A DNA stretch of 64,000 nt from a virus (IMGVR_UViG_3300027708_000016), one strand, 5' to 3'. Numbered from the stretch's first letter, positions 1,242-61,402 are shown. Program-made: numbers and translations. Notes: generated by a model not told the origin, from the sequence alone.

Positions 1242-1291
1242 TACCCTATATTTATCTTAAAAAAATATCAATTCGGGATTAATATTTATTA

Positions 1292-1837
1292 TCAAGAATA
1301 AGTTTGTTCTTGAAAGATAATATTGTTATTAATTTGGAAATCTTGTAATATTTTTTCTCCTTGTGAAAGATTATCAGGAGAATGTACAAAAATACCTAAA
1401 ATACACTGTTTTTGTATATTAACCGCATCTTTATATGTGCTTAAAAATGGAACATAACTATCTCTTGAAAGAACACCATATCCAGCTTCGTTTTCTACTA
1501 ATACATCAACAAACCCAGATGCATTAAAAATTTCAGGTGCATGAAGTACAATATAATTGTTATTTTCGATAGTGTAATTTGTTACTAATGAGGCATTAAA
1601 ACCTGGATTTAATGCGGATAAATGATTTGCTGAAAACGGATTAAAATAACTAGTAGTATTTGGAAGTATATTTGGGTTTGATCCACTTAAATAAACATTT
1701 CTAACATTAATGAAATTAGCTCCCAGAACATTTATATAAAGATTTGTTTCTGTAGGAGATAATGCAGATTGTAATATAATTGTAGATGGATAGACATCAT
1801 ATAGCCTAGGTCTAGCGTTTATGATAAAATGATCCAT
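1292..1837 (-). CDS. Hypothetical structural protein (IPT/TIG-like beta sandwich)
   Basis: Intact 181-aa ORF co-oriented with the portal; GFVDVLVENEAGYG resembles the end of an IPT domain. Confidence 0.45.
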   Translation of the reverse strand: MDHFIINARPRLYDVYPSTIILQSALSPTETNLYINVLGANFINVRNVYLSGSNPNILPNTTSYFNPFSANHLSALNPGFNASLVTNYTIENNNYIVLHAPEIFNASGFVDVLVENEAGYGVLSRDSYVPFLSTYKDAVNIQKQCILGIFVHSPDNLSQGEKILQDFQINNNIIFQEQTYS

Positions 1838-1843
1838 ACACTA

Positions 1844-3706
1844 TTATGTTGCTGGTGTTTCTATTCCTGCTGCTGGTGTTTCTACCCCTGCTGCTGGTGT
1901 TTCTACCCCTGCTGCTGGTGTTTCTGCTCCTGTTGCTGGCGGTGTTCCGAAATCTGGTATTGCTGATGCGCCACCACCACCACCTATTGCTGGTGGTGCT
2001 CCTGCTTCTGCTCCGAGGCTTCCTGATGCCTCTTCTGCTGCTTCTAGGTGCTCTCTCCAGTTAGGACCTGTCTGACTGATTTGTGCAAGCTCCCAAGTAA
2101 GTGCTGCATCTTTTCTGAGCCATTCCATGTTTTCAGATATTTTGGAATCATTGAGACCAAGATAATGTCTTTGACAGAATGTTTTAGACATTGATTCGTT
2201 CTGAGATAGATTATTAAAATTGTTATATTTCAACTCAAACTCTTGATTTTTTCTCATCGCAAAATAATTGGATGGAGGATTGAAGTGGGTATCAAAATAC
2301 GACTCGTGTAATTTATATTCATTCCACCATCCACGAAGTTTAAGGTGAGTTATGAATGAATCTTTAAATGCCTTTGTAAATTGACCTTGGACACGAACAA
2401 TAAATTTTGCAAAACGCAATTCTTCTCTTAAAATTTCTGCGCCATCTTTATATCCTTCGTCGGGATTCATACGAGTTAATGGTACTTTAAGACTCTTATA
2501 AAGTTTGTTTACAAAGTATGTTAAATCTTCTATCTTTCCTAGGTTTGCTCCACCATTTAATAACTCCACATCACTGCCACTTTCTCCTGCTCTTTTGGCA
2601 AACCAGAAAGAATCCAACATGGACTGTGGATCATAAACATTACCTGCGCCCTTGCCACTCTGGGAGTCATAGGTCTTCTTTGACCAATACGATTGCATAA
2701 GTTGTCTAAGATAAGCTTCTGCTTTTGCTGGTGGCATATTACCAACATCAATTTTAAATTTTAAACGTTCTGGTGCACGAACCATACGATAGATAACAAC
2801 TGCATCTTCAAGGAGTGATACCTGTTTATAAGCACGACGAGCATTTTCTATAAAGGGAATCTTTATGGTCATGTCCTCGTTCCACATTCCAGAATTAACA
2901 TAAGTAATTTGGTTTCCTTGGAATGTTACCAATTGCTGCTGCATTGCATTTGCAGGTGAATTATTCATCTGCTGTGGTTGAGTTGGGTTGTTGCTACCAG
3001 CTTGATTTTGCTGTAAATTAATTGGTTTTGAGAAAATGAAATTTTCAATTACATTATTCTGAACGCTATCATAAACTGGATTGATTAGTTCACCAGGTAT
3101 GTTTAACACACCGATAATACCCAAATCTCTTTTCTTTTCATGGACTACGTTTTCAAAGAAAATTTCTCCTTCAACTAATAATTGTCTGCAATACCCCCAA
3201 CCTTTATGCTCAAGATCAAACACCTGAATGAACTTGTAAAACTCTCTTTCAATTTCACTTCTTTGAGAAGAATCCAACTTTCCAAAAGAAGAAAATGAAA
3301 TTCTTATAAATTTATCTTCATCGTCTTTGTTTAAAAAATCATCACAAATTTCATCTAAGCAATCACCGATTTCTGCATACGATGCCATTCTACGGTATTC
3401 TGCAATTCTTCTTATCTTATCGGTATCTACACTGGCATAAATGTATTTGTGGTAAGCGTGATCCGAACCAAATGAGCCTGGTGTATAATTGTCGTTTTGA
3501 CGAAGATGCGGTCCCGTAATAACAGACTGCTGCATGACTTTATATTCATGTCTCTTTGATAATCTATCGAATAATTCATATCTAGGATTGCCTTCGTCTG
3601 CATCTACTGCGTCCTGTATATATGGTAATCTTGATAAGATAGATTGGATAAAGTTTCTCTGTCCATTATCTGGCTGTCTTTGTGCTGTTGGTAAAATATC
3701 AGGCAT
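1844..3706 (-). CDS. gp20: Portal vertex protein, T4 gp20-like
   Basis: Motifs LEDAVVIYRMVRAPERLKFKIDVGNMPPAKAEAYL, SMLDSFWFAKR and LYKSLKVPLTRM, EILREELRFAKF. Confidence 0.96.
   Translation of the reverse strand: MPDILPTAQRQPDNGQRNFIQSILSRLPYIQDAVDADEGNPRYELFDRLSKRHEYKVMQQSVITGPHLRQNDNYTPGSFGSDHAYHKYIYASVDTDKIRRIAEYRRMASYAEIGDCLDEICDDFLNKDDEDKFIRISFSSFGKLDSSQRSEIEREFYKFIQVFDLEHKGWGYCRQLLVEGEIFFENVVHEKKRDLGIIGVLNIPGELINPVYDSVQNNVIENFIFSKPINLQQNQAGSNNPTQPQQMNNSPANAMQQQLVTFQGNQITYVNSGMWNEDMTIKIPFIENARRAYKQVSLLEDAVVIYRMVRAPERLKFKIDVGNMPPAKAEAYLRQLMQSYWSKKTYDSQSGKGAGNVYDPQSMLDSFWFAKRAGESGSDVELLNGGANLGKIEDLTYFVNKLYKSLKVPLTRMNPDEGYKDGAEILREELRFAKFIVRVQGQFTKAFKDSFITHLKLRGWWNEYKLHESYFDTHFNPPSNYFAMRKNQEFELKYNNFNNLSQNESMSKTFCQRHYLGLNDSKISENMEWLRKDAALTWELAQISQTGPNWREHLEAAEEASGSLGAEAGAPPAIGGGGGASAIPDFGTPPATGAETPAAGVETPAAGVETPAAGIETPAT
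1851..1934. repeat. 4 x 21-bp tandem repeat encoding ETPAAG(V/I) at the portal C-terminus
   Basis: Unit gctggtgtttctacccctgct with small variants. Confidence 0.9.
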
Positions 3707-3712
3707 TTTTAA

Positions 3713-3718
3713 TATTTA
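3713..3718 (-). promoter_or_regulatory. Late promoter TAAATA of portal
   Basis: TAAATA box ends 6 nt before the ATG at 3706; the same box recurs upstream of many late genes. Confidence 0.65.
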
Positions 3719-3744
3719 GTCTTAAAAAGTATTTATCAAGCATA

Positions 3745-3772
3745 TTGACTTAAAAACAACTTATGATAAATT
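3745..3772 (+). promoter_or_regulatory. Sigma70-like promoter TTGACT-N16-TAAATT
   Basis: -10 box ends 6 nt before the ATG at 3779. Confidence 0.65.
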
Positions 3773-3778
3773 CTATAT

Positions 3779-4714
3779 ATGGACAAATACGTAATTTTTC
3801 ACATTGATGGTGGTTGTGGTAAAAATATTGTTGCTACTGCTGTAGTAAAATCAATTAAAGCTGCTTATCCAGATCATAAACTTATAGTTGTAACAGCATG
3901 GCCCGATGTATTTGCACATAATCCAAATATTCATAGAGTTTATAGGTTTGGAAATATTCCTTATTTTTATGAGGATTATATAGATAATAAAGAGTCTGTT
4001 ATTTTAAGATCAGAACCATATCATTCTGGTGACTTACTATATAAAAGAAAATCATTAACTGAAATTTGGTGTGACGTATTTAATATTCCATGTATTGATA
4101 AAAAACCAGAAATTTTCTTAGCCGAAAGAGAATTATTATTTGCAGAAAATCAATTACAAAAGCAAGGACCTATCTTATTGATACAATCATCTGGTGGTGC
4201 AGAGCAACAAGGTCATCCTTATTCTTGGTCAAGAGATTTACCACCCGTTTTTGCTCAAGAAATAGTTAATTCTGTAAAAGATAAATTTAATAAAATTCTC
4301 CATGTACGAAGAGATAATCAGCCCGAATTACAAAATACAATAAAACTTACTGACGGTTTTAGAAATTTATTTTGCTACATTGCTCATTCTGATAAAATAT
4401 TGGGAATTGATTCTTTTGTTCAACATGCTGCTGCTGCATTTAATAAAAAAGCAACAGTTGGATGGATTTCAAATTCCCCCGTTGTGTTTGGTCATGAAAT
4501 ACACGATAACATCTTAGCATCTGGCGCAAAATCATTTAGACATCGAATAGATTCATACTTAGAAGAAGAAGATTGGACGGGTGGAAAATTTCATGAATGT
4601 CCATATGACAATATCAATAATCTTTTTGATAAGGATCAGTTTATTGAATCTCTTTTGGGATCAAAAAATGATTTAGTTTTTGACTTTGCCGATCAACCAA
4701 AAATTGTATTTTAA
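3779..4714 (+). CDS. Glycosyltransferase, GT9 (heptosyltransferase-like)
   Basis: N-terminal GGCGKNIVATAVVKSIKAAYPDHKLIVVT and C-terminal GIDSFVQHAAAAFNKKATVGW match the GT9 pattern. Confidence 0.75.
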   Translation: MDKYVIFHIDGGCGKNIVATAVVKSIKAAYPDHKLIVVTAWPDVFAHNPNIHRVYRFGNIPYFYEDYIDNKESVILRSEPYHSGDLLYKRKSLTEIWCDVFNIPCIDKKPEIFLAERELLFAENQLQKQGPILLIQSSGGAEQQGHPYSWSRDLPPVFAQEIVNSVKDKFNKILHVRRDNQPELQNTIKLTDGFRNLFCYIAHSDKILGIDSFVQHAAAAFNKKATVGWISNSPVVFGHEIHDNILASGAKSFRHRIDSYLEEEDWTGGKFHECPYDNINNLFDKDQFIESLLGSKNDLVFDFADQPKIVF

Positions 4715-5337
4715 TTGATATTTGATTCATATTGTTTATCTTGAATAATAGAATTAAATGGGAATAGTGGCTTTACGATATATCTTCCTTCTAAATTATA
4801 ATTGTAACTCATATGCTGCATGATTTTTGCATAGAAATTATCTATTTCCATTCCTGATGCTTCCGCCATATAAATAATGTCATCAAAAACCTTTTTGGAA
4901 ATTGCATACGAATGTGTTGTTACTATTTGATTTCTGAACATTGATTCGATCAACCCACCAAAATACAAAAAATCCCAATCCTTGTTTAAGGTTTCCTGAT
5001 TATTTAGAAGAACTTCATTAGGATCGTTTAAGAATTTTATATCATCTTCAAATATAAGAATCTTCTTGTATGAATTTGTTTTTGCATCATTTACAATATT
5101 TAAATGAGATGATCTACAACCTAATGCACCAAGAACATACTTTGTGTCTTGCTTGTTAAAATTTCTAAACAAACTAAAACTTGGTGGTAATTGATTATAA
5201 GATGTTGCTGATATCCTTTGAAAATTTTTTATATTAAAGGTTTTAAATTGATTTAAAATATTTTCGTTGCGTTGTTTATCATTATCTAAATTAATGTAAT
5301 AAATTTTATCGAAATATGTATCTATTAAAGATTTCAT
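4711..5337 (-). CDS. Glycosyltransferase, GT25
   Basis: KIYYINLDNDKQR, GALGCRSSH, ILIFEDD. Confidence 0.8.
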   Translation of the reverse strand: MKSLIDTYFDKIYYINLDNDKQRNENILNQFKTFNIKNFQRISATSYNQLPPSFSLFRNFNKQDTKYVLGALGCRSSHLNIVNDAKTNSYKKILIFEDDIKFLNDPNEVLLNNQETLNKDWDFLYFGGLIESMFRNQIVTTHSYAISKKVFDDIIYMAEASGMEIDNFYAKIMQHMSYNYNLEGRYIVKPLFPFNSIIQDKQYESNIN

Positions 5338-5343
5338 ACTTTT

Positions 5344-5406
5344 ATCATAACGTATTATGGATACATGTCAAATAGAACTTGATTTACTTGGTTTACATGT
5401 TAAATT
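5344..5406. promoter_or_regulatory. Divergent sigma70-like promoter pair
   Basis: Minus: TTGACA(5371-5366)-N16-TATGAT, 6 nt to ATG 5337. Plus: TTGATT(5379)-N16-TAAATT, 7 nt to ATG 5414. Confidence 0.65.
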
Positions 5407-6242: not shown

Positions 6243-7238
6243 ATGTACAATGTAACAGACATAAGGGACATACACATTGAATTAACTAGTAAATGTAATG
6301 CTAGATGTCCAATGTGTTCTCGCACACGTTTAATTCAGTCTGGTAAAGAAGATTTATTACGAGATGAAATAACATTAGAATTATTTAAAAAATGGTTTTC
6401 TGTGGATTTTGTTAAGCAATTAACAGGATTAAGAATGTGTGGTAATTTAGGAGATGCTGTTATGGCAAAGGATACAGTTGAAGTTTTTCAATATTTGAGA
6501 GAAAACAATTCGAATATGAATCTTAAATTGTTTACAAACGGAGGAGCAAGAGATGATAATTGGTGGAAAAAACTTGCAGAAACTAACGTCGAAGTTATTT
6601 TTGCTATTGATGGTTTAGAAGATACAAACAAACTTTATAGAGTTAATACTGTTTGGGAAAAAATTATGCACAATGCAAAAGTTTTTATTGATGCTGGTGG
6701 AACTGCTTCTTGGTATATGCTTGTTTTTAAACACAACGAACATCAAGTAGATGAATGTAGAGCATTAGCTTATAGTATGGGTTTTAAAAAATTTGATCCA
6801 AAACATTCCAATCGTTTTGGATCTGGATCTGGTTTAGCTGTATATGATAGTGATGGTGTTTATACGCATACAATAGAGCCTACAACATATAGTTTAAATA
6901 TAAAGGATAAAGAAAAAAAGATTAATACTGGCAACAATATTGATTGTAAATCTTTAAGGAAAAAAAGTATATATGTAGCAGCAAGTGGAATTATAACTCC
7001 ATGTTGTTGGACTGAATTATCTAAAAAAGCAATGCATGATAAACGTAAAGAATATGAAAACAAAATTGGTTCTTATTACAGTTTACATGATTACACTTTA
7101 GAAGAAATTCTCAACAAAGATTCATTCAATAATATTGCAAAATTATGGACAAACGAACCTTTATCTATTTGCAGTAGTCAGTGTGGTAATTTTAAAAAAT
7201 GTGAATCACAATTTATTGAAAGAGTCTCAAACTCTTAA
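6243..7238 (+). CDS. Radical SAM protein with C-terminal SPASM/twitch-like domain
   Basis: CNARCPMC (CxxxCxxC), FAIDGLEDTNKLYR, C-terminal C...PCCW...CSSQC. Start probably 6243, with TAAATA at 6232-6237. Confidence 0.85.
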   Translation: MYNVTDIRDIHIELTSKCNARCPMCSRTRLIQSGKEDLLRDEITLELFKKWFSVDFVKQLTGLRMCGNLGDAVMAKDTVEVFQYLRENNSNMNLKLFTNGGARDDNWWKKLAETNVEVIFAIDGLEDTNKLYRVNTVWEKIMHNAKVFIDAGGTASWYMLVFKHNEHQVDECRALAYSMGFKKFDPKHSNRFGSGSGLAVYDSDGVYTHTIEPTTYSLNIKDKEKKINTGNNIDCKSLRKKSIYVAASGIITPCCWTELSKKAMHDKRKEYENKIGSYYSLHDYTLEEILNKDSFNNIAKLWTNEPLSICSSQCGNFKKCESQFIERVSNS

Positions 7239-7486
7239 TATATCCACTGAATACTATCTGCACTAAGAGTAAGCAATTCAGTAGCACGAGCAAGTATACT
7301 TTCATTTGTCCAAGCACTTGCTGCTGCATATTCTGTGGAACCATCCCAAACAACAAAAGAAAGAGGTACTTTTTTAATATGTGCAATAATTCTTTGCTTA
7401 GATGGTAAATCTCTTATTGATGTTAAAGCTAATTCGGATTCTTCTATAGTAATAGTATTACTGGGTAAATTGATTGTTAAACTCAT
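7235..7486 (-). CDS. Hypothetical late protein
   Basis: 83-aa ORF preceded by a perfect TATAAATA (7493-7500, minus strand). Confidence 0.65.
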   Translation of the reverse strand: MSLTINLPSNTITIEESELALTSIRDLPSKQRIIAHIKKVPLSFVVWDGSTEYAAASAWTNESILARATELLTLSADSIQWIY

Positions 7487-7517
7487 ATATACTATTTATA
7501 CAATTTTTGTTTAATTG

Positions 7518-8237
7518 TTAAATATTTTTTTCTTTAATTGTTGTTTGAAACCAAAAATCATCTTTCAAGGCAAGTTTTACTTCATTATAATTTAAAAGTT
7601 GTTCTTCTAAAGTATATATATTTTGTTTTAATATGGTGGGAGTTACGTTTTTATACCTTTCTTTAAATTCTGTTATAAATTCATATTCTTTTTGAATATT
7701 AAATTTATTTTCAATTAAATCTTCGTAGTATACTTGTAAAAAACTAATATTATTTTGTTCAAAATATGTACTATATTTTTTGTGTATTGCTTCCCGTTTA
7801 TCCGTTTCGTAATAATATTTTTCAACATCAAAATTAAATTTAATATTGGTACTATTCAGTAATTGTTTGTTTGTTTCTGTAATACAAAAATGCTTTGTTA
7901 TACGTGCTTTTTGTAGAGAGAGATTTTTTAAAAATTTATTTTTTCTTTCCAGAAAAATAACTTTTAGGTTTTTATCTTTTATATACTCCTCTATACTAAA
8001 ATTATATTTCTTTTCGAGAGCTAACGCTTGGGAAAAAGTTAGTTTGAATCCTGTAAATAACTTTTTAGTATGTAAGTTACTAATTATTTTTTGAGGAGTA
8101 TTATCTACTGTAATAATATCATTTAAATTTCTAATTAAAAAAATTTCAGGATGACACCAAACATTGTTTTGTTGGTTTAATAAATTTTTAATTAAATTAC
8201 TTCCACACCTTGTATCACTAAATATTATAAATTTCAT
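7518..8237 (-). CDS. Stf0-like sulfotransferase
   Basis: FIIFSDTRCGSNL, WCHPEIF, KVIFLERKNKF, QVYYEDL. Confidence 0.75.
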   Translation of the reverse strand: MKFIIFSDTRCGSNLIKNLLNQQNNVWCHPEIFLIRNLNDIITVDNTPQKIISNLHTKKLFTGFKLTFSQALALEKKYNFSIEEYIKDKNLKVIFLERKNKFLKNLSLQKARITKHFCITETNKQLLNSTNIKFNFDVEKYYYETDKREAIHKKYSTYFEQNNISFLQVYYEDLIENKFNIQKEYEFITEFKERYKNVTPTILKQNIYTLEEQLLNYNEVKLALKDDFWFQTTIKEKNI

Positions 8238-10030: not shown

Positions 10031-10070
10031 TATTATATTTTATAGAAGAATTTTAAAAAATCAAGATTTA

Positions 10071-47118: not shown

Positions 47119-47127
47119 ATTATTATT

Positions 47128-48342: not shown

Positions 48343-48755
48343 TAGTAATTTCTCATAGAGGGAATACTACTGGCCCAGTTAAACAAACCGAAAATCGACC
48401 CCAAACAATTCAACCTTTATTGGATAAAAATATCCACGTGGAAATTGATGTTTGGTTAATAGGTGACAGTTTTTTCTTGGGTCATGATGACCCTTTATAT
48501 AAAACCGATATAAAATTTTTATTACAAAAAAATCTCTGGTGTCATGCAAAAAACTTAAAATCATTAGAAGAAATGTTAAAACACGATATTAATTGTTTTT
48601 GGCATGAAAACGATAAACACACTTTAACATCTAATGGTTATATTTGGACTTATCTTAATCAAAAAACATGTGATAAATCCATAATAGTTGATTTATCAAA
48701 AAACTGGAAAGAAAAAAATTATAATTGCTATGCCATTTGTGTTGATTACTTGTAA
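48339..48755 (+). CDS. PLC/GDPD-like phosphoesterase
   Basis: ISHRGN, EN, VEIDVW, LGHD, WCHAKN; overlaps the RuBisCO-like stop (ATGA). Confidence 0.72.
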   Translation: MIVISHRGNTTGPVKQTENRPQTIQPLLDKNIHVEIDVWLIGDSFFLGHDDPLYKTDIKFLLQKNLWCHAKNLKSLEEMLKHDINCFWHENDKHTLTSNGYIWTYLNQKTCDKSIIVDLSKNWKEKNYNCYAICVDYL

Positions 48756-48776
48756 AAACAATTTATAATTAGGTAA

Positions 48777-50585: not shown

Positions 50586-50614
50586 TAAACTGACACAAAT
50601 TTATAAATTTACAT

Positions 50615-51943: not shown

Positions 51944-51974
51944 TTTATGCACCTACATGGTGCATCATTGAATA

Positions 51975-54551
51975 ATGGCTTATAGAAATGTTTATTACGA
52001 CAATAAAAATGAAGTAATACATCTTTTTACTTGGGATAAGGATGGTAAAAGGACAAAAGTGCTATGTTCATATGAACCATATCTTTATATTGAGTCTCAA
52101 AATGGTTGTGATGGCAAATCTATTTTTAATTCTGCACTAAAAAAGGTTAAATTCAATAATCAAAGAGCAAGAAACAAGTTTGTAGAGGAAACCCCGATTG
52201 AAAGACTTTTTCATAATCTTGGAACCGATCAACAGTTCCTTCTTGATAATTTTAAGAACGATGTAGACAAAGAAGATTATGGTAAACAACCATTAAAGAT
52301 CTTTTACATTGATATTGAGACATATTCTGATGGTACTGGATTCTCCAAAGCATCCGATGCTAACGATCCAATCAATTTAATTACAATTTATGATTCTCTC
52401 AGTGAAATATATTACACTTTTGGATGCAATAACTATGCAACACAAGAAGAAAATGTAAAATACATTAAATGTTATTCAGAAAAAGATCTTCTTACACAAT
52501 TTATTAGGTTTTGGAAAAAAGATTATCCTGATATTGTCACTGGGTGGAACATTGATAACTATGATATTCCATATATCATCAATAGAATTACAAAAATTTT
52601 TAATGATGAAGATAAAGCAAAGGAATTGTCACCAGTTGGTAAGTTACAATTCAGGGAAAAGGTTGCAGTTAACAAATTAGGTCAGGCAATTGATCGTTGG
52701 TACATTCATGGTGTTAGTATTTTAGATTACATGGAGGTATATCAGACCTTTTCAATGGGTGATCGTGAGAGTTTCAGCTTGAATTATATTGGTGAATATG
52801 AACTAGACGAAGGAAAGGTTGCAGTTGGTAGTTATTCGCTCTCAAGACTAGCAGATGAAGATTGGATGAAGTTTGTTGACTATAATATTCAAGACGTTCG
52901 CATTTTAATTAAGTTGGAAGAGAAGTTGAAGTATCTAAAGTTGATTCGCAACCTATCATACAGGGGATTTGTTCCCTTTACAAAGGCACTGGCAAAGGTT
53001 TCAGTCATTACGGGTGCGGTTGCACACCAAGCATTAAGAGATGGTTATATAATTCCCACATTTAAAGATGAAAGAATTAAAGTAAAGTTTGCAGGAGGGT
53101 ATGTTTACCAACCCGTGCCAGGTTTATACGATGATCTAGTAACGTATGATGCAAACAGTCTTTATCCCAATACTATTATTACTTTAAATATCTCACCAGA
53201 GACTAAAATTGGTAAAATTACAAATTTTGAAGATGATAAATTTGAAGTAACGTTTTCAAATCATAAAACAATGACGTTTACGGTGGAAAACTTTAAGAAA
53301 TTTGTTTCTGATCAACAACTTTCTATTACCAAAGCAAATATTCTTTATACTCAGAAAGTTAAAGGTGTAGTTCCCAAGCTTATCGACAAGCTTTACAACG
53401 AAAGAATTACAGCAAAGACAAAAATGATGGATGCTGAGAAGAAATTAGCCAAAACAAAAGATCAAAATCAAATAAAAATCTTAGAAGAAGAGGTTAATGA
53501 TAACTATACATTACAGAATGTGTATAAAACTCTTCTAAATTCTATTTATGGTGTATTTTCTAACATTTATTCGCCACTTTTTGACATTGAACATGCCGAA
53601 AGTGTTACTTTAACAGGTCAAAATGTTGTTAAAACGGGTGCAAAGATAGTACATGAGTATGCAGTAAGCAAAGGGTTTGAAGGAGATCTTCATGATATCT
53701 GTGTTTATTCCGATACGGACAGCGTTTATTTTTGTTTTGCTAAATTATTTGCTAAAAATAACATTATTTTAGCAAATAAAGACGGTGAAATAACATCAGA
53801 AGCATCAGAAATGATCAAAGATATTGGAAAACATCTTAATGAAAAGATTAATGAATGGGCAAAACAAGAATTGAAGACGATTGATCCAAGATATTTCTTT
53901 AAAAGGGAAAAAATTTGTGACGTTGCTCTTTTACAAGCAAAAAAATATTATATTCTTCATATTTTAGATAATGAAGGTATTTCAACTAATGAATTTCTAT
54001 ATACTGGAATTGAAGTTGCCACTTCAAAAATCTCAAAGGAGATTAAGGTATTAATTAAATCAATTGTGGAGTCTGCTATTCTATCAAAAGACAGAAAGAA
54101 AGCCAATCAACTATTTCAAAATGGATATGAAGATTTTTGTAGTTTTCCCGTCGATGCGATTGCAATTAGAAAGAGAGTAAACAAATTAAAGGAGTATCAA
54201 GACAAAGTTAAAGATGAACAAGTTGCAAAGGGTACGCAGGGTCACACCAAAGCTGCAATTTACTTTAATATACTACTCAAGAAATTAAATCTTACCAACA
54301 AGTATCATCCAATTCAAACTGGAACTAAATTAAAGGTATTTTATTGCAAGAAGAATAAATTTGGTTATGACGTTTTTGCATTTACCGATGAATTACCAGT
54401 TGAAATTCAAAAATATATTAAACCAGATTACAAAATGATGTTTGAAAAAACTGTCATGCCAGTTGTTACTAAGATTTTTAACATCATTGGGTGGCCCACG
54501 CCTGAGATCGGTTGCGAAGAACATACTGATTTAATTGCATTATTATCATGA
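51975..54551 (+). CDS. gp43: Family B DNA polymerase gp43
   Basis: Exonuclease DIETY, GWNIDNYD and YNIQD; polymerase DANSLYP, KTLLNSIYG and YSDTDS. No intein-sized insert. Confidence 0.97.
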   Translation: MAYRNVYYDNKNEVIHLFTWDKDGKRTKVLCSYEPYLYIESQNGCDGKSIFNSALKKVKFNNQRARNKFVEETPIERLFHNLGTDQQFLLDNFKNDVDKEDYGKQPLKIFYIDIETYSDGTGFSKASDANDPINLITIYDSLSEIYYTFGCNNYATQEENVKYIKCYSEKDLLTQFIRFWKKDYPDIVTGWNIDNYDIPYIINRITKIFNDEDKAKELSPVGKLQFREKVAVNKLGQAIDRWYIHGVSILDYMEVYQTFSMGDRESFSLNYIGEYELDEGKVAVGSYSLSRLADEDWMKFVDYNIQDVRILIKLEEKLKYLKLIRNLSYRGFVPFTKALAKVSVITGAVAHQALRDGYIIPTFKDERIKVKFAGGYVYQPVPGLYDDLVTYDANSLYPNTIITLNISPETKIGKITNFEDDKFEVTFSNHKTMTFTVENFKKFVSDQQLSITKANILYTQKVKGVVPKLIDKLYNERITAKTKMMDAEKKLAKTKDQNQIKILEEEVNDNYTLQNVYKTLLNSIYGVFSNIYSPLFDIEHAESVTLTGQNVVKTGAKIVHEYAVSKGFEGDLHDICVYSDTDSVYFCFAKLFAKNNIILANKDGEITSEASEMIKDIGKHLNEKINEWAKQELKTIDPRYFFKREKICDVALLQAKKYYILHILDNEGISTNEFLYTGIEVATSKISKEIKVLIKSIVESAILSKDRKKANQLFQNGYEDFCSFPVDAIAIRKRVNKLKEYQDKVKDEQVAKGTQGHTKAAIYFNILLKKLNLTNKYHPIQTGTKLKVFYCKKNKFGYDVFAFTDELPVEIQKYIKPDYKMMFEKTVMPVVTKIFNIIGWPTPEIGCEEHTDLIALLS

Positions 54552-54577
54552 AAAAGTTTCCAAATATATCAAAAGCA

Positions 54578-55003
54578 CTAGGATGGGATATCTCTTAAAC
54601 GACCTTTAATAAACTTTTTAAGTGTTTTTGGTTTATCTGGATCATACGGGGGCATTCCTAAATCTTTTCTTAATTTAGCAAACGGATCTTCATTCATTTC
54701 TAAAGTTTTATTTCCATCATCGAAAGTTTGTAAGTGTTTATTTGCAATCTTGGGGTCTAATTCGTTTATAAGTTTATCAAAAAAAGAAATCATTGCTATC
54801 TCGGCATCCTTTTCTGTTATAAAATCATACCCTGATACATATATTTCATCTTTGTCAGAATATTTTATTTTATATTCAACTCTATAGGCAATAAACGATT
54901 TTGATTCATATGTATCACCATCAAAACTAGTTATATTCTTACTGTCAAATGTCGGTGGATTATATAAAATCAAATCTCTATAAGTTTTTTGATATTCTTT
55001 CAT
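54578..55003 (-). CDS. Hypothetical protein (lone opposite-strand insertion)
   Basis: 141-aa ORF filling the gap between gp43 and the next plus-strand gene. Confidence 0.55.
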   Translation of the reverse strand: MKEYQKTYRDLILYNPPTFDSKNITSFDGDTYESKSFIAYRVEYKIKYSDKDEIYVSGYDFITEKDAEIAMISFFDKLINELDPKIANKHLQTFDDGNKTLEMNEDPFAKLRKDLGMPPYDPDKPKTLKKFIKGRLRDIPS

Positions 55004-55058
55004 TATTTTTAATATTTACCCCCTTGCATAATTAATAAGCACTTCTAAATCTTATTAT

Positions 55059-55439
55059 ATGACAACAACAACAGACAAAACAAAACTAACCATAATCCTA
55101 GATTCAGTTGGTCGCACCATTCTTGGTGAGACTGTTGAGGCTACGGATACAACGAAAACCGTAATCAAGAACCCAGTAGTTCTTCACGTAATCCCAGCAG
55201 ACAATCAAGGTAAGATGTCCGTTCAGTTACTACCAATCTTTTTTAGGGAGTTTCTCGCTGATAAGACAGGTGATGTTAACATCACTTATGATAATTCAAG
55301 GATTAGTGTCACCGATATTGATGCTCTTGATTTCCGTCTTCAGGCTCAGTATCTTCAGATGTTTAATCAGAACAATGCTTTTGTTCCTCCAACACCGCAG
55401 CAGGATTCAAGTTCAGTAATTAATCTTTTTGATGAGTAA
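55059..55439 (+). CDS. Hypothetical beta-barrel (Sm/SH3-like) protein
   Basis: Beta-rich sequence with codon bias suggesting high expression; promoter TTGCAT-N16-TAAATC at 55024-55051. Confidence 0.6.
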   Translation: MTTTTDKTKLTIILDSVGRTILGETVEATDTTKTVIKNPVVLHVIPADNQGKMSVQLLPIFFREFLADKTGDVNITYDNSRISVTDIDALDFRLQAQYLQMFNQNNAFVPPTPQQDSSSVINLFDE

Positions 55440-55468
55440 TTCGTAATCTGATCAAAGAAACCAGTAGG

Positions 55469-55503
55469 AAACCCAGAATGTTTTTGACATTCTGGGTTTT
55501 TCT
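55469..55503 (+). terminator. Intrinsic terminator hairpin overlapping the -35 box of the uvsX promoter
   Basis: 13-bp stem aaacccagaatgt / acattctgggttt, 5-nt loop, followed by T residues. TTGACA(55484)-N16-TAATAT(55506). Confidence 0.75.
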
Positions 55504-55518
55504 GTTAATATAGGATAT

Positions 55519-56637
55519 ATGGCTAAAAAGAAAATCGAAGAAATAGATGAAGTTAAAAACGGTAATGTAGAAGATGCATTTAAAGTGCTTTCTGACCTTA
55601 ACCCAGAAGCAGCATTCTTGGATGATGGCAGTCTTTCAAGCGTGAATGAATGGATTGATACAGGATCATACGCTTTAAATGCTATTATATCTGGTTCGCT
55701 TTATGGTGGAGTACCAATGGGAAGACTTACAGGCTTTATTGGACCTGAATCATGTGGTAAAACACTTATGTGTAACAAAGTTATGGCTAATGCACAGAAA
55801 AAAGATATGCATATTGCATATTTTGACACAGAGGGTGCATTGGATGAGAATACAGCAAAGAGACTTGGGTGTGATACATCAAAAATTAAACATGTTCCTA
55901 GTGAAGTGACTGAAAATTGCAGAAATCAAATTGTAAAGTTCCTTGATACGGTTATTGAAAAGGGTTTACACGGTAAAGTACTTCTTGTTATCGATTCTTT
56001 GGGTAATTTAATCACCGCACAAGAGAAAAAGAAGATTGACGAGGGTTCTGACACTCCAGACATGGGAAATCGTGCAAAATCCCTTAAATCAATGATGAGA
56101 GCAATCACACATTCTGCCGCAAAAGCAAATTGTCCTGTGATTTTTACCAATCATATTTATGATGATCCTTCACAACTCCATCCTAGTGCAATTAAGAAGC
56201 AAGCAGGTGGCTCTGGACCCCTTTATATGGCATCTGTAATTGTTCAAATGGCAAAAAAAGCCGAAAGATCGGAAGATAGTAAGAATAAAGATTCAAATGT
56301 AGAAACAACTTTGCTATCAAAGGGTATTAATGGTTTAACATTAAGAGCATTGACCACAAAAAATCGATTTGTTACTCCATTTTTAGAAATTGAGATGTAT
56401 TTGAACTTTAGAACTGGATTAAACAAATATTCTGGTCTTGTTGAAATGGCAGAAGGTTACGGAGTTATTGAAAAAAATGGTCATAGATACGTTTTTAATG
56501 GTGAAAATCTCGGTTTCTTCAAAGAATGGAAAGATGATGAAGCAGTTTGGAATAAAATTCTTCCAAAATTAGAAGAAAAACTTCAAATTGGTCTATCATT
56601 TAAAAATGATTCTGGACAATCTTTAACATTGGAGTAA
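55519..56637 (+). CDS. uvsX: RecA-like recombinase UvsX
   Basis: IDTGSYALN, GPESCGKT, YFDTEGA, VIDSLGNL, GGSGPLYMAS, KNRF. Confidence 0.95.
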   Translation: MAKKKIEEIDEVKNGNVEDAFKVLSDLNPEAAFLDDGSLSSVNEWIDTGSYALNAIISGSLYGGVPMGRLTGFIGPESCGKTLMCNKVMANAQKKDMHIAYFDTEGALDENTAKRLGCDTSKIKHVPSEVTENCRNQIVKFLDTVIEKGLHGKVLLVIDSLGNLITAQEKKKIDEGSDTPDMGNRAKSLKSMMRAITHSAAKANCPVIFTNHIYDDPSQLHPSAIKKQAGGSGPLYMASVIVQMAKKAERSEDSKNKDSNVETTLLSKGINGLTLRALTTKNRFVTPFLEIEMYLNFRTGLNKYSGLVEMAEGYGVIEKNGHRYVFNGENLGFFKEWKDDEAVWNKILPKLEEKLQIGLSFKNDSGQSLTLE

Positions 56638-56646
56638 ATTTATTAT

Positions 56647-56883
56647 ATGATTAATACGACAACAAAAGAAATTATTAGTGGAACAGAAGAAGAACTACTT
56701 GAATACTTCACGAAGAAGTACGACTTAGTTAAAAATGATTCTAATACCGCTCAAACAACCGAAGTAACCGAAACAACTCCTACACAATCTACTTGTTGTG
56801 CAAATAAAGGTGTTCAGGTTGGTAATAAAGTTACTACGGGTATTGGTAATTTGTTCGCAGGGACAACTTGGGGAAACAAATGA
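56647..56883 (+). CDS. Hypothetical protein
   Basis: 78-aa ORF between uvsX and gp41. Confidence 0.5.
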   Translation: MINTTTKEIISGTEEELLEYFTKKYDLVKNDSNTAQTTEVTETTPTQSTCCANKGVQVGNKVTTGIGNLFAGTTWGNK

Positions 56884-56926
56884 TTTATGAGTTGCTTTTG
56901 TGTGAGAAGCAACTTATAATAGTTTA

Positions 56927-58324
56927 ATGGATAAAAAACAGCTTCCTTTAGATTTAGTTGAGTATGAAAAGATAATCATATTCAACTCAATCATGGATCA
57001 ATCGTACTTGGAAACGATTTTTGATCACGCAAAACCTTCTTTTTTTAAGGATAAGGATATCAAAACAATATTTAATATTGTAAATTCTTATTACGAAGAG
57101 CATAATGCAGTACCAAATATAACAGAGATCAAAGCGCATTTGGTTTCCGAAGAAGATAAACAATCATTGAAGAGAGTTTTGTTGTCTTTTGATAAAATTG
57201 ATAAGACATATGATAAAGAAGTTTTGATAAAAAATACAGAAAGGTGGTTAAAACAGAAGGCAATTTTAAATACCTATTTTAATACTTCGGTAGATGTTCA
57301 AAGTGGCGATATCGACAGCGAAAATATTCTTAAAAAGTTTGAAGAAGCCTGTAACATTTCTTTGATAGATAATCTTGGGTTGGATTACTTGGAGAGTATT
57401 GATGAACATGTTGATGAGCTTCTAAAAACAGAAGAAAGAATCTCAACAGGGTGGAAATGGCTCGACAAAAACATTGGAGGTGGCTTTCTTAAAGATGGTA
57501 GAGCACTTTATGTTTTCTACGGATCAACAAACGTTGGTAAATCCATCTTCTTAGGTAATATTGCAACCAATATTCTTAATCAAAACAAAACAGTTGTTCT
57601 TATAACATTGGAAATGCCAGAGCATGTTTATGCAAAAAGAATAAGTGCATCCTTATCAAGGATTCCTTCCAATGATTTGAAACTACAAATTGAACCATTA
57701 AGGAATAAACTTAATCAGTATAAGGTTAAGAACAGTGATAGTAAATTAATCATCAAAGAATTTCCAACCAAAGGCATTACGGTTTTGGGTATTAAAACTT
57801 ATATTGAGAAACTTATTAAAAATGGTGTTAAACCCGATGCAATCATTTTGGATTATTTGAATTTGATTGCACCCAACACTGCCAATAAGAATTCTTATGA
57901 CACTATTAAGGAAATAACCGAATATGTCAGAGCATTAACTTATAAGTTTGAATGTCCAATCATTACAGCAACACAAACCAATCGATCTGGTTACAAAAAC
58001 GAGATGCCAGACTTAGAAACAACCAGTGAATCTATGGGATTAGCTCATACTGCTGATGCACAGTTCCCAATTTGGGTTGATGAAAAGGATTTTGAGCTTG
58101 GTATTATCCATTTGGGTATTGCTAAAAATCGATTTGGTGGAAGAGGTATTCATACACAATTAAAAATTGATTATCCAACTTTATCAATTACCGAACTTGA
58201 TGAAGTAGTGTTTAACTACACATTAAAGGGATCTGCACCCAAGAATTTAAATACAGATTCCAATCCAAGTATAACAGATATATTAAATAGTGCACAAAAT
58301 TATTCAAACGATGATGACATTTAA
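56927..58324 (+). CDS. gp41: Replicative DnaB-like helicase gp41
   Basis: ISTGWKWLD, GSTNVGKS, ITLEMPE, IIKEFPT, ILDYLNL, TATQTNRSG, SESMGL, KNRFG. Confidence 0.95.
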   Translation: MDKKQLPLDLVEYEKIIIFNSIMDQSYLETIFDHAKPSFFKDKDIKTIFNIVNSYYEEHNAVPNITEIKAHLVSEEDKQSLKRVLLSFDKIDKTYDKEVLIKNTERWLKQKAILNTYFNTSVDVQSGDIDSENILKKFEEACNISLIDNLGLDYLESIDEHVDELLKTEERISTGWKWLDKNIGGGFLKDGRALYVFYGSTNVGKSIFLGNIATNILNQNKTVVLITLEMPEHVYAKRISASLSRIPSNDLKLQIEPLRNKLNQYKVKNSDSKLIIKEFPTKGITVLGIKTYIEKLIKNGVKPDAIILDYLNLIAPNTANKNSYDTIKEITEYVRALTYKFECPIITATQTNRSGYKNEMPDLETTSESMGLAHTADAQFPIWVDEKDFELGIIHLGIAKNRFGGRGIHTQLKIDYPTLSITELDEVVFNYTLKGSAPKNLNTDSNPSITDILNSAQNYSNDDDI

Positions 58325-58347
58325 CGGTTTATGTATAAATAAACTTA

Positions 58348-58650
58348 ATGATTATAACATCATCACAACAATTTGATAATTTAAGTAACCCGTATGACGC
58401 ACTAAACATAGAAGAATTTGAAAGTATTACTTTAAAATTTGGATCATTTGTTTGTATATCAAAAGGTAAAAAAATGAACTATTTAAACTTTTTAAAATAT
58501 TTAGTAGACGATAAAAAAACCCAAAAAATATATTTTGCATTATTGGGAGAATATTCTTTACAAAATATTATAAAGGCTTATCTTGGATCTACGCCAAATG
58601 TCTATAAAAAGATATTCAGATCCAAATTAAACCGAAAAAAAGATGCTTAG
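58348..58650 (+). CDS. Hypothetical late protein
   Basis: TATAAATA at 58334-58341, 6 nt before the ATG. Confidence 0.6.
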   Translation: MIITSSQQFDNLSNPYDALNIEEFESITLKFGSFVCISKGKKMNYLNFLKYLVDDKKTQKIYFALLGEYSLQNIIKAYLGSTPNVYKKIFRSKLNRKKDA

Positions 58651-59290
58651 TCTATCAGATAAAGAAAAACAAATTTACAATTGCTATTTAAAATATTCTA
58701 GAAAGGGGCAACCATACACTCCTAGAAAGAATTTTTCCGATATCGATGCCAATACTTTTACGAATTTAAAAAAGATATCTTTAATTCTTTCTAAATTTAA
58801 TCATATAAGGATTGATGATTACTTTAAAGCTCCTTATATTCTTCATCCAGAAGATGCTTATCCTTCTTTAGTTTCTTTTACCACACTTTCTGCTACGAGA
58901 AATTATTCCTTGTTTAAAAAACAACAAGAAGACGAAGATCCAGAAAAGCAATTTGATAGTATCAAGGAAAGCTTTAGGTTCATAACAATGTTTTGTTTGG
59001 AGAATAAAATTCCATTGGAAAAATACTTGAGTCACAAGACAGGTTACATGACATCTTGGTTAAATCATTACAGAGAGCATAGAATCAATCCTTATGGGTT
59101 AATGGAGATGGATGGTATATTTGACAGCTTATCTTCTTTTCAAAAAGATGAGATTGAGTTATTTGCCAAAAACTTAAATGAAAAATTTGTTGCTTATAAA
59201 TCAAGATATATCTCATCAACCCCAACAAGGACTCTAGTGAAAGAGGCAACAAACAAAATTAAGAATTTTATTAAAAATAACTTGCAATAA
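58643..59290 (+). CDS. Hypothetical protein, possibly the gp59-like helicase loader
   Basis: 215 aa, helical, directly upstream of gp32 as gp59 is in T4; the sequence similarity is not convincing by eye. Confidence 0.4.
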   Translation: MLSLSDKEKQIYNCYLKYSRKGQPYTPRKNFSDIDANTFTNLKKISLILSKFNHIRIDDYFKAPYILHPEDAYPSLVSFTTLSATRNYSLFKKQQEDEDPEKQFDSIKESFRFITMFCLENKIPLEKYLSHKTGYMTSWLNHYREHRINPYGLMEMDGIFDSLSSFQKDEIELFAKNLNEKFVAYKSRYISSTPTRTLVKEATNKIKNFIKNNLQ

Positions 59291-59320
59291 ACAAAAACGC
59301 TGCTAAGATAGATTATAGAT

Positions 59321-60172
59321 ATGACAACTAAATACAACTCAAATATATTCGACTCACTCAAGGATGCGCTTTCCACAAAGGACGTATCAGAAAACAGTTT
59401 TAGGGACTTCTTGAAGATGGAGCCAGACAAGACCTACATTGTTCGCTTGCTTCCAAATCTTGCTGATGGTAAGAGGACTCGCTTCCATTATTACCAGCAC
59501 GTATTCCCATCTCTTCTTTCACAGAAGAAGGTTTCCTGCCTCTGCCCTCACACGTATGGTGAGAAATGCCCAATTGATGAGTATCGTAGCAAGGTTTATG
59601 CTGCAAAGAATGATACTCTTATTGATCAGTCTCGTCCCTTAAAAAGGTCTGAGAAGTGGCTTTACAATGCTTTGGTTATCAAAGACCCAAGCAATCCAGA
59701 GAACGAGGGTCAGGTAAAGATCATCAATGCTGGTATCCAGCTTAACAAGATCATCCAGAATGCCATTGATGGTGATGATAAGGATGAGTTTGGTTTCAGA
59801 ATCTTTGATCTCTCTCCAAATGGTTGCAATCTTCGTATCAAGGTTGAGACCAATGATGGTGGGTATCCAACGTATGTTTCTTCAAGGTTTGTTTCACCAA
59901 GTCCTGTTGAGGGTCTTGATGATGCTGATGAGATTTACAATCAGGTTAAGAGTCTTGATACTATCTTTCAACAGAAGTCGTATGAGGAGATCAAGAACCT
60001 CCTTGATTCTCATTTCTTTGGCAAGGAAGTTTCTTCGACTCCAACCCAGATTGGTGACACCGAAGAAGATGATGACAAGACATTTGAGGATGTAAAACCA
60101 GATGTTGAAAAACCAACACCAGTTCTTTCTGAACAGGAGAAGAAGGTTCAGGATATCCTCAAAGATCTCTAA
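59321..60172 (+). CDS. gp32: Single-stranded DNA-binding protein gp32
   Basis: IVRLLP, CPHTYGEKCPIDE, WLYNALVIKDPSNPENEGQVKI, FDLSPNGCNLRIK, acidic tail ending QDILKDL. Confidence 0.93.
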   Translation: MTTKYNSNIFDSLKDALSTKDVSENSFRDFLKMEPDKTYIVRLLPNLADGKRTRFHYYQHVFPSLLSQKKVSCLCPHTYGEKCPIDEYRSKVYAAKNDTLIDQSRPLKRSEKWLYNALVIKDPSNPENEGQVKIINAGIQLNKIIQNAIDGDDKDEFGFRIFDLSPNGCNLRIKVETNDGGYPTYVSSRFVSPSPVEGLDDADEIYNQVKSLDTIFQQKSYEEIKNLLDSHFFGKEVSSTPTQIGDTEEDDDKTFEDVKPDVEKPTPVLSEQEKKVQDILKDL

Positions 60173-60174
60173 GA

Positions 60175-60636
60175 ATGAATCGCCAACAAGAGGAAGCGTT
60201 AGAAGCAGCAAAACTTGCTGCTATGGTTGGGTCTCATCTTAGAACAATGGATCAGATGACCGTAGAAAGTTCAGATGTACCAGCTAATCGTATTGATTTA
60301 AATAAATTTATCAATAATGTTAGACAGCACGATCCAAGAAGAAACAATGCACCTAGACAAAATTTTGGATATAGAAATGTATCTAGTCCATACCCATCCG
60401 AAGATCAAGTTAGAGCAATGATTCCAGATGCACCGTCATTTGTTCCACCTCAACCTTCATTTGAAGACATAGCGGCGCAAATGATTCCGTTACCTTCTGC
60501 TCCATTGCCGCAGAATACACCGATTTCAAACGAATCACTAACAAATATTGAAAAAAATGTAGAAAGGATTGGTAATACTTTGGAAACTCTGTTAGAATTA
60601 GTTAATAAAATAACAATTCAACAAAGTGAGCAATAA
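60175..60636 (+). CDS. Hypothetical Pro-rich protein
   Basis: Intact 153-aa ORF between gp32 and the clamp-like gene. Confidence 0.6.
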   Translation: MNRQQEEALEAAKLAAMVGSHLRTMDQMTVESSDVPANRIDLNKFINNVRQHDPRRNNAPRQNFGYRNVSSPYPSEDQVRAMIPDAPSFVPPQPSFEDIAAQMIPLPSAPLPQNTPISNESLTNIEKNVERIGNTLETLLELVNKITIQQSEQ

Positions 60637-61381
60637 CAATCTTCTTCCAATTCCGAAAACATCTATTGAAAAGCTTTTAAAGCCTATCAATAGGGTTACA
60701 GAAAGCTGCGTACTGCGAACCAGTAGCGATAGTTTGTATTCTCTTTGTACTTCCGCTGATAATAGTGTAATTCTTTATGCTGTTTGTAATCTTCCGATGC
60801 AAATTGAAGATTCAAAACTCAATATTATTAATATCAAGAAGTTCTTAACTGGTCTTGATTGTTTGGGTGATGATGGTGAATTTACCATGATCATTGAGAA
60901 AAATAACATTAAGTGTCAGTCTAAGAACGATGAGACAGCCGAAAATGCTCATTTTAAATATCATTTGGTTGATGATGGTATTATTAAGGAATCAACTGTT
61001 AAAATTGAAAACATAATCAAATTAAACTTTGATACTGTTTTTGATATCGAGTTATCAAAACTCAGACAAATTATGTCAGGATATTCCTTTGTATCAGATG
61101 TTACAAAGATTTATTTTTACACAAAAGATGGTAGAGTCTATGCAGAGATTGATGATAAAACTATGCAGAATGTGGATAATATTTCTTTGATGTTATCATC
61201 AAATTACCAAGGAAAAGACATTGAACCAATCTCCATCAAAATTGAGGTTTTCAAGAGTTTGATTAGTAGCAAGTACCCTGTAAAGGTTAAGATTAATGAT
61301 GAAATGAAAATCTTTGTTTTTACTACAAAAGAAGATGAAAATGTTGAACTAAAATATATTGTTTCTGCACTTGTTAAATAA
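60626..61381 (+). CDS. gp45: Sliding clamp (gp45/PCNA-like)
   Basis: 251 aa with two-domain clamp-like periodicity (NIINIKKFLTGL; FDIELSKLRQIMSG); replication context. Confidence 0.65.
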   Translation: MSNNNLLPIPKTSIEKLLKPINRVTESCVLRTSSDSLYSLCTSADNSVILYAVCNLPMQIEDSKLNIINIKKFLTGLDCLGDDGEFTMIIEKNNIKCQSKNDETAENAHFKYHLVDDGIIKESTVKIENIIKLNFDTVFDIELSKLRQIMSGYSFVSDVTKIYFYTKDGRVYAEIDDKTMQNVDNISLMLSSNYQGKDIEPISIKIEVFKSLISSKYPVKVKINDEMKIFVFTTKEDENVELKYIVSALVK

Positions 61382-61402
61382 AATAAACCTATAAATATAA
61401 TT

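Follow-up and report, generated by a model that had tools for sequence, protein, structure and literature searches.

Where do the messenger RNAs (mRNAs) of a phage begin when its promoters end at its start codons? This question is raised by the virus IMGVR_UViG_3300027708_000016, of which a stretch of 64,000 nt, hereafter the window, was analysed. Two classes of promoter-like elements lie directly in front of its genes: sigma70-like promoters, here called early, and boxes of the type TAA[A/G]TA (TAARTA), here called late. A preliminary description of the sequence had proposed that both classes end where the start codon begins. We found that this promoter-abutting layout is real and common to the clade of related phages. 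From the DNA alone, it predicts leaderless mRNAs, or mRNAs with leaders of 0–3 nt, for about 40% of the genes, a reading that we consider probable.

The source of the window is a divergent T4-like myovirus. The G+C content is ~30%, and the genes are densely packed, with gaps mostly of ≤50 nt; the 79 genes called are the denominator for the start-codon counts given below. No DNA-level match and no near-identical phage DNA was found for the window, and the best protein identity to cultured phages was only ~30%. Relatives were found in IMG/VR at 79 loci, with portal identities of 46–81%. The near-complete ones measured 200–227 kb and came from lakes and seawater; for complete ones the range was 210–227 kb.

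Positional enrichment was assessed against shuffled backgrounds, and both promoter classes were far above chance near starts. Distances (d) were measured from the end of the -10 hexamer, or of the late box, to the start codon. The pattern TTGNNN-N16-TANNNT was found 15 times at d = 4–12 from a called start, at actual distances of 5–11 nt, compared with 0.51 when the local upstream DNA was shuffled (2000 shuffles), and other spacers (13–15 and 17–21 nt) gave 0–5 each under the same test. TAARTA at d = 4–9 preceded 16 of the 79 starts, at actual distances of 5–9 nt, with 0.53 expected from its genome-wide rate and 2.3 (maximum 8) in shuffled upstream regions; at internal in-frame ATGs, used as a control, the count was 2/315. 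A start-agnostic test, counting any ATG past a box that opens an open reading frame (ORF) of at least 70 codons, gave the same distance peaks. Boxes were present at 29 of 38 unit-first genes, defined by an upstream gap of >12 nt or a divergent neighbour, versus 8 of the 41 internal ones. When positions 44001–64000 were scanned for generic sigma70 promoters, 111 matches were returned versus 99 ± 9 in shuffles, with no excess in number, so it is the position of the matches and their spacer that carry the signal.

The same layout was recovered from the relatives. In a survey of 51 non-redundant related loci (680 genes), late boxes peaked at d = 5, 6 and 7, with 44, 67 and 40 sites, respectively, and only 4% of the genes had a Shine-Dalgarno (SD) core. 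When 6-mer enrichment was computed de novo over 345 upstream regions from the clade, TAAATA (194 vs 13 expected, z = 50, modal distance 6) and TAAGTA (69 vs 3, z = 37) came out as the top two words, which agrees with the relaxation of the late consensus to TAARTA that had been suggested. TATAAT was also enriched, with a modal distance of 6, as was TTGACA, with a modal distance of 28 (= 16 + 6 + 6). No SD-like or TTTG-bearing words were among the enriched 6-mers of these regions. The promoter of the gene starting at 3779 keeps its 16-nt spacer and d = 6 in three relatives (L001, L002 and L010), though spacer and discriminator bases differ, and relatives of gene 900–1241 keep ATAA[A/G]TA 5–12 nt upstream of a conserved N-terminus.

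The start codons themselves were checked, because first-ATG calling could push starts toward upstream A/T words. N-termini were conserved across relatives, with diverged DNA just upstream, for the portal gene, the 113-aa gene 900–1241 and the genes starting at 3779 and 5414; the N-terminus MKNIF of the last is kept in L001, L002, L005 and L033. The Metallophos domain of gp47 starts as early as residue 7, with no further in-frame ATG before codon 129; in gp46 the SMC_N domain likewise begins at residue 7, with the next in-frame ATG at codon 122. For the 31 abutted genes, which start with 30 ATG and one GTG, the next in-frame ATG is usually 40–300 codons off, or absent. The start codons at the boxes are correct. 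Three longest-ORF starts (5357, 30222 and 26652) are probably wrong, and box-adjacent in-frame ATGs are found at 5414, 30246 and 26553, respectively. For annotation, a TAARTA or -10 box 5–8 nt upstream fixes the start codon, and by this rule the three starts were corrected.

The distances have a direct geometric meaning. The -10 hexamer of a sigma70 promoter occupies positions -12 to -7, so that at d = 6 the predicted +1 coincides with the A of the ATG. For T4 late boxes the positions are -13 to -6 (PMC1524935), so that a box ending 5 nt before the ATG gives the same result. The early class peaks at d = 6–7 and the late box is modally 5–7 nt before the ATG. As the preliminary description had it, the modal distances of both classes thus place the predicted +1 on the A of the ATG or at most 3 nt from it. 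In bacteria rich in leaderless mRNAs, the -10 box is found 6–8 nt from gene starts (PMC6028130). The further claim that most mRNAs are leaderless has to be narrowed: it fits most transcription units but not most genes, as an abutting box is found at ~31–37 of the 79, and the remaining genes, internal to operons, cannot be leaderless.

No consistent SD motif was seen at either kind of gene, as had been noted before. GGAG, GAGG or AGGA was present at -20 to -4 in 7 of the 79 genes (4.6 expected), and the anti-SD duplex energy was weaker upstream of genes than at random positions. An abutting box is missing from 48 genes; 35 of these overlap an upstream same-strand gene or lie within 9 nt of it, 12 of the 35 by ATGA overlaps. 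The sequence upstream of internal genes is A-rich, G-poor and weakly structured, ATG is depleted near starts, and structure is weaker in the first 36 nt of genes than in coding windows farther inside (P = 2e-4). Ribosomes probably reach the unboxed genes through coupling of termination to reinitiation, or start on them internally and independently of SD.

All 16 late boxes of the preliminary description were confirmed as TAAATA or TAAGTA, 5–8 nt before an ATG or GTG, and the full tally rose to 19 genes. On the minus strand, TAAATA is found at 1249–1254 (7 nt to the ATG of gene 900–1241), 3713–3718 (6 nt to the ATG of the portal gene gp20, 1844–3706, minus strand), 7493–7498 (6 nt, gene 7235–7486), 8246–8251 (8 nt, gene 7518–8237), 20333–20338 (6 nt, gene 19910–20326), 25361–25366 (7 nt, gene 24877–25353), 27330–27335 (5 nt, gene 26743–27324), 29544–29549 (7 nt, gene 28991–29536), 42678–42683 (6 nt, gene 41973–42671) and 55013–55018 (9 nt, gene 54578–55003). 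TAAGTA is found on the same strand at 15121–15126 (8 nt to the ATG of an 876-aa fibre-like gene), 17167–17172 (11 nt, a 663-aa fibre-like gene, predicting a short leader), 18888–18893 (6 nt to the GTG of the gp15-like gene, 17193–18881, minus strand), 19911–19916 (7 nt, gene 19520–19903), 23493–23498 (5 nt, gene 23035–23487) and 26559–26564 (5 nt to the corrected ATG 26553 of ORF 26101–26652). The plus strand has TAAATA at 21375–21380 (12 nt to ATG 21393, again a short leader), 58336–58341 (6 nt to ATG 58348) and 61392–61397 (5 nt to ATG 61403).

In T4, late promoters of the sequence TATAAATA are read by gp55 together with gp33 and the gp45 clamp (PMC1524935, PMC2988020). The 3' six bases of this octamer are kept here, and the two 5' positions are not conserved. 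A gp55-like late sigma factor is encoded at 32046–32705 on the plus strand, with 35–38% identity (E ~1e-22) to the annotated gp55 of the pelagiphage HTVC008M and the cyanophage P-SSM4, and with a weak Sigma70_r2 match. Its gene lies between those of a UvsW-like helicase (30641–32068, by Pfam) and gp47, the same order as in cyanophages, and each of five near-complete relatives has one sigma-like gene, gp55. This homologue is the expected reader of the TAARTA boxes. Ten window proteins were scanned for the clamp and gp33 without a Pfam match, and the remaining genome lies outside the window. The gp55 homologue aligns with other gp55 proteins only from residue 72 on, so it has either a ~70-aa N-terminal extension or a later true start; as called, its ORF shares 23 nt with the helicase gene.

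The 15 early -35 boxes described before are all present, as TTGNNN at exactly 16 nt from a TANNN[T/C] hexamer. In 13 of the 15 the ATG follows 5–9 nt after the -10, as claimed; in the other two, at 30206 and 59282, the distance is 11–12 nt. Four similar promoters (56892–56920, 29016–29043, 41186–41213 and 33755–33782) were missing from that description.

Several early promoters precede T4-core genes recognised with Pfam. The primase gene (gp61-like, 22023–23000, minus strand) has TTGACT-N16-(TGT)TATATT at 23007–23034 on its strand, 6 nt from its ATG. On the plus strand, TTGAAA-N16-TAGAAT (32702–32729) ends 7 nt before the ATG 32737 of gp47 (SbcD-like, 32737–33795), TTGATT-N16-TATAAT (48742–48769) 7 nt before the ATG 48777 of gp46 (SbcC/Rad50-like, 48777–50585), TTGACA-N16-(TGT)TAATAT (55484–55511) 7 nt before the ATG 55519 of the UvsX/RecA-like gene (55519–56637), TTGCTT-N17-TATAAT (56892–56920) 6 nt before the ATG 56927 of the gp41 helicase (56927–58324), and TTGCAA-N16-(TGC)TAAGAT (59282–59309) 11 nt before the ATG 59321 of gp32 (59321–60172), which predicts a short leader. 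All five of these genes are on the plus strand.

The other early promoters on the plus strand are TTGACT-N16-TAAATT at 3745–3772 (6 nt to ATG 3779), TTGATT-N16-TAAATT at 5379–5406 (7 nt to the corrected ATG 5414), TTGAAA-N16-(TGT)TATAGT at 30206–30233 (12 nt to ATG 30246, corrected from 30222; short leader), TTGATT-N16-TATAAT at 45775–45802 (8 nt to ATG 45811), whose -35 overlaps the stop codon of the preceding gene, TTGACT-N16-TATAAT at 47091–47118 (9 nt to ATG 47128), which matches the consensus at 11 of 12 positions, and TTGATA-N16-TAAATT at 50582–50609 (5 nt to ATG 50615), with the gp46 stop codon inside its -35. An internal early-type promoter, TTGATT-N16-TAATTT at 33755–33782, lies within the end of gp47, 9 nt from ATG 33792. 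The weak early-type site TTGCAT-N16-TAAATC at 55024–55051 (7 nt to ATG 55059) has a non-canonical -10 without the final T and is the least convincing of the early promoters. On the minus strand there are TTGACA-N16-TATGAT at 5344–5371 (6 nt to the ATG of gene 4711–5337), back to back with the promoter at 5379–5406, TTGATT-N16-TAAAAT at 10037–10064 (6 nt, gene 9083–10030), TTGACT-N16-TAAAAT at 24842–24869 (8 nt, gene 24534–24833), and two early-type promoters, TTGAAC-N16-TATAAT at 29016–29043 (11 nt, gene 28495–29004, with a short leader) and TTGGAT-N16-TAATAT at 41186–41213 (10 nt, gene 40477–41175).

Across 18 early promoters the spacer was 16 nt in 17 and 17 nt in one, and an extended -10 (TGn) was present in 8 of 18, versus a background of 8.8%. 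The exact 16-nt spacer thus stands for the window, and it fails for the relatives, which use 16 and 17 nt about equally (17 vs 18 sites); for this reason it is a feature of this genome and not of the clade. The idea that it is a signature of the host polymerase did not hold. The spacer of sigma70 promoters is ordinarily 17 ± 1, so the geometry is an ordinary one and identifies no host.

Two of the early promoters coincide with hairpins. A strong terminator-like hairpin at 55468–55500 (15-bp stem and U-run, -23.5 kcal/mol, z = -4.1) lies in front of UvsX and contains, in the loop and the 3' arm, the -35 TTGACA of the UvsX promoter; a single 79-nt gap accommodates the interleaved terminator and promoter. 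The gp41 promoter is spanned by a perfect 15-bp hairpin at 56885–56919 (-17.3 kcal/mol, z = -6.6); the 5' arm includes the -35 and the 3' arm the greater part of the -10, and there is no U-run downstream. Similar cassettes of promoter plus stem-loop have been described in T4-like phages.

From the layout, its statistics and conservation, the start codons and the presence of gp55, we infer transcription start sites, sigma assignments and mode of translation as follows. The intergenic gaps contain little beyond a promoter. The early/middle class, TTGAC(w)-N16-(TGn)TAnAAT, would be read by the holoenzyme with the primary sigma factor of the host and would drive replication, recombination and glycan genes, among them gp61, gp47, gp46, UvsX, gp41 and gp32. 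The late class, TAA[A/G]TA, would be read by the gp55 homologue of the phage and would drive portal, gp15, fibre and lysis genes. As the boxes place the expected +1 at the A of the start codon or 1–3 nt ahead of it, the unit-first cistrons (~31–37 of 79) are predicted to lie on leaderless or near-leaderless mRNAs, with initiation at the 5'-terminal AUG. Gene function follows promoter class, with early-type promoters at replication, recombination and glycan genes and late boxes at the portal gene, gp15 and two fibre-like genes. This link is drawn from T4-core genes only, because a PHROGs search with 20 boxed genes returned almost no matches; many boxed genes outside the T4 core had no recognisable function.

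Several points weigh against this scheme. Loose sigma70 matches are no commoner than in shuffled AT-rich DNA, and the weak individual sites at 55024, 41186 and 33755 may be due to chance. With a fixed +1, late boxes at d = 6–8 leave leaders of 1–3 nt, and six sites at d = 10–12 imply leaders of 4–7 nt. Given the same-strand arrays and the few terminators, read-through transcripts must also include these cistrons at internal positions, and the main template may then be a transcript other than the leaderless one. If the host belongs to the Bacteroidota, the assignment of the early class needs another explanation.

The read-through transcripts allow an alternative, in which the promoters are real and leaderless transcripts are minor, most protein comes from polycistronic read-through, and the tight packing reflects genome streamlining. 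Terminator-like sites were indeed not enriched (9 vs 8.2 in shuffles, 44001–64000), many promoters lie within same-strand arrays, and internal genes are evidently translated without SD, a route that is open to unit-first genes too. However, the divergent unit-first genes (portal 3706/3779, 5337/5414 and 42671) have no upstream same-strand transcript from which they could be read. The distance of 5–7 nt is also kept across the clade at portal identities down to 46%, and since packing alone would tolerate any short distance, this conservation counts against streamlining, as does the choice of ATG at 30 of the 31 abutted starts. We consider this alternative unlikely.

Even less likely, in our view, are boxes that act in translation, as a Kozak-like element or a ribosome-binding site other than SD, in an SD-blind host, for example one of the Bacteroidota, on mRNAs leadered from promoters farther upstream. 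The phage does lack SD, like Tenacibaculum phage PTm1 (SD core in 3/56 genes) and unlike T4 (60% of genes), HTVC008M (43%) and P-SSM4 (28%). A 'ribosome-binding site' consensus TAAAA, 2–12 nt from the start, was proposed for Flavobacterium (PMC2483708), genomes of GeneMarkS-2 group B carry an A-rich motif ~7–9 nt from starts (PMC6028130), and the regions upstream of internal genes are A-rich and G-poor here too. But the group-B motif precedes first and internal genes alike (PMC6028130), whereas the boxes of the window strongly prefer unit-first genes (29/38 vs 8/41), and TAAGTA, with its G, is enriched as much as TAAATA. A full -35, a fixed spacer and TGn, as in the early class, would be superfluous for a translation signal. 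TAAATA-N5-ATG occurs also in HTVC008M, whose genes otherwise use SD, and the box fits the late consensus of T4 in a phage that encodes gp55. An artefact, in which TATA-like words common in AT-rich DNA meet starts that first-ATG ORF calling has pushed against them, is very improbable: total sigma70-like matches equal shuffles and TAARTA occurs 144 times in the window, but the local shuffles, internal-ATG controls and start-agnostic test reject it, the starts are fixed by homologue N-termini and domain boundaries, and T4 and P-SSM4 gave no such peak under the same analysis.

Leaderless and near-leaderless expression of the unit-first genes, the reading that we prefer, was compared with known systems. 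With T4 the window shares an A/T box with a TAAATA core, without conserved -35, upstream of structural genes, and an encoded gp55 homologue. In T4, however, TATAAATA lies 17–28 nt from the ATG, with GGAG between them, whereas the boxes here are 5–8 nt away, no SD is present, and conservation is limited to six bases, the fourth of which may be G (TAAGTA). In P-SSM4, late-type boxes lie 19–25 nt from the ATG. HTVC008M, T4-like and AT-rich as well, comes closer: TAAATA(G)-N5-ATG is found at its late genes only, and in 100 kb 11 starts have TAAATA at a distance of exactly 5 nt. It differs in the distance fixed at 5 nt, in sigma70-like promoters that do not abut starts and in its frequent SD. No description of this box-ATG layout of HTVC008M was found in the literature searched. 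In the Rhodothermus phage RM378 (positions 1–50000; SD core in 14/62 genes), TTATTTAAA precedes the ATGs of many genes by 5–7 nt, for example at 3445–4395, 4414–5055, 17847, 20275–21240, 29547, 35631 and 45740. A cultured phage thus seems to have its own specific promoter that likewise abuts start codons. Membership of the window in the Far-T4 group with RM378 was considered and rejected: the portal protein has 28.6% identity over 168 aa to that of RM378, the cyanophage portals are closer, and the window was therefore not placed in Far-T4. PTm1 is leadered.

The nearest published case is the Thermus phage phiYS40, a large myovirus whose middle and late genes are reported to be expressed from leaderless mRNAs, with changes in host IF2/IF3 (review PMC3594737). 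Most of its non-early transcripts are leaderless, but its host belongs to Deinococcus-Thermus, a group in which leaderless mRNAs are usual, and no leaderless state is reported for its early genes; in the T4-like phage of the window, starts are abutted by early-type as well as late promoters. The Actinobacteria and Deinococcus-Thermus (GeneMarkS-2 group C) resemble the window in the distance from -10 to start, in the use of ATG and in SD-less first operon genes (PMC6028130, PMC12340547, PMC3160421), and differ from it in that their internal genes keep SD and their -35 is weak, whereas here internal genes are SD-less and the -35 is strong. The Bacteroidota (group B), in which the anti-SD is sequestered by bS21/bS18/bS6, share SD-less genes, A-rich and weakly structured upstream regions and ATG depletion (PMC6847099, PMC7797042), but have leadered mRNAs and TAnnTTTG promoters, an element that this phage lacks. 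In F. johnsoniae, 87% of mRNAs have leaders of >10 nt, and in B. thetaiotaomicron and F. psychrophilum 3.7–5.5% of mRNAs are leaderless (PMC6847099, PMC7366714, PMC9723704). No paper describing leaderless genes in T4-like phages was found in the literature searched. Leaderless expression itself is known, and it is predicted here for both promoter classes of a T4-like lineage.

The promoter pattern had also been put forward as an aid to identifying the host. By itself it names none: the missing SD sites suggest a host like the Bacteroidota, and the promoter type points away from one. Several hints favour Bacteroidota. The SD frequency is as low as in the Tenacibaculum phage PTm1, and one related contig was binned in a metagenome-assembled genome of the Chitinophagaceae; this genome holds that single phage contig and no phage DNA polymerase, and the link is weak because the rest of the phage is missing from it. 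The GT25-like gene 4711–5337, which has an early promoter, has 55–59% protein identity over its full length to three Chitinophagaceae genomes and up to 76% DNA identity over 185 nt, with Chitinophagaceae as the only comparison on the phylum side, and may, judging from these similarities, have been exchanged with Bacteroidota. Ribosomal protein bS21 is encoded by two of the five near-complete relatives (L087:1450–1674, 74 aa; L088:1453–1650, 65 aa), with matches to viral clusters only in the ESM Atlas, and was not found in the window. It is a trait of lake Bacteroidota phages (PMC9723584), and of pelagiphages too.

Other evidence speaks against this host. The primary sigma factor of Bacteroidota reads TAnnTTTG, and TTGACA/TATAAT promoters are not used (PMC6847099). 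In the window only 4 TAHHTTTG elements were within 120 nt of starts, none consistently positioned (102 in total vs 71 expected), and the five near-complete relatives have no second sigma gene. As a lead only, Chen et al. reportedly found in 2007 that a TTTG-TA gap of 19 bp is optimal in Flavobacterium, and TTG-N19-TA is the geometry of the 16-nt spacer. No tRNAs were found in the window. A search for C-terminal domains of the type IX secretion system gave no match, and the control genomes were likewise unmatched. Among 401 Chitinophagaceae genomes no convincing spacer-like DNA match was found; hits of 26–27 nt at 96% identity (E ~1e-3 per genome) are at the level expected by chance. Should the host nevertheless be one of the Bacteroidota, whose mRNAs are 87–96% leadered (PMC6847099, PMC9723704, PMC7366714), the leaderless layout would be an invention of the phage and not a mimicry of its host. 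That promoters of the sigma70 type occur together with translation signals of a Bacteroidota-like kind is a conflict that turns the identity of the host into a sharp, answerable question.

Two further sites were noted. The gene of the family-B DNA polymerase gp43 (51975–54551, by Pfam) has merely a poor -10, CATCAT, and a hairpin, ATGCACC-TACAT-GGTGCAT (51947–51965), 9 nt upstream of its ATG. If gp43 is read from upstream transcripts, this hairpin could be the counterpart of the translational operator of T4 gp43. The 93-nt gap at 28402–28494 precedes gene 27619–28401, which was called with a TTG start, and holds ~2.5 tandem copies of the 18-nt unit ACTTAAATATCTTATAAT. Each copy contains late-box-like and -10-like words, and the gap shows no folding (z = +0.75).

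It had been suggested that leaderless mRNAs may let the phage escape a shut-off of leadered translation. This fits poorly, since half of the genes are translated from internal positions. We raise tentatively, as a possibility with the odds against it, that T4-like phages abundant in aquatic habitats, a whole clade of them, express their genes without any ribosome-binding leader, by 5'-terminal AUGs and then by stop-start reinitiation, as a phage-specific programme and not a copy of the host's. Together with the bS21 that some relatives encode, such a programme could favour phage messages in their access to the ribosome. Temporal promoter classes and SD-led, RegA-controlled translation have T4 as their textbook example; within its family, a large uncultured branch appears to do without leaders and SD, at early and late genes, which changes the picture of T4-like gene expression. 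The layout offers a concrete way into the study of phage translation when the host is SD-blind or streamlined, and HTVC008M and RM378, which have related layouts, are in culture.

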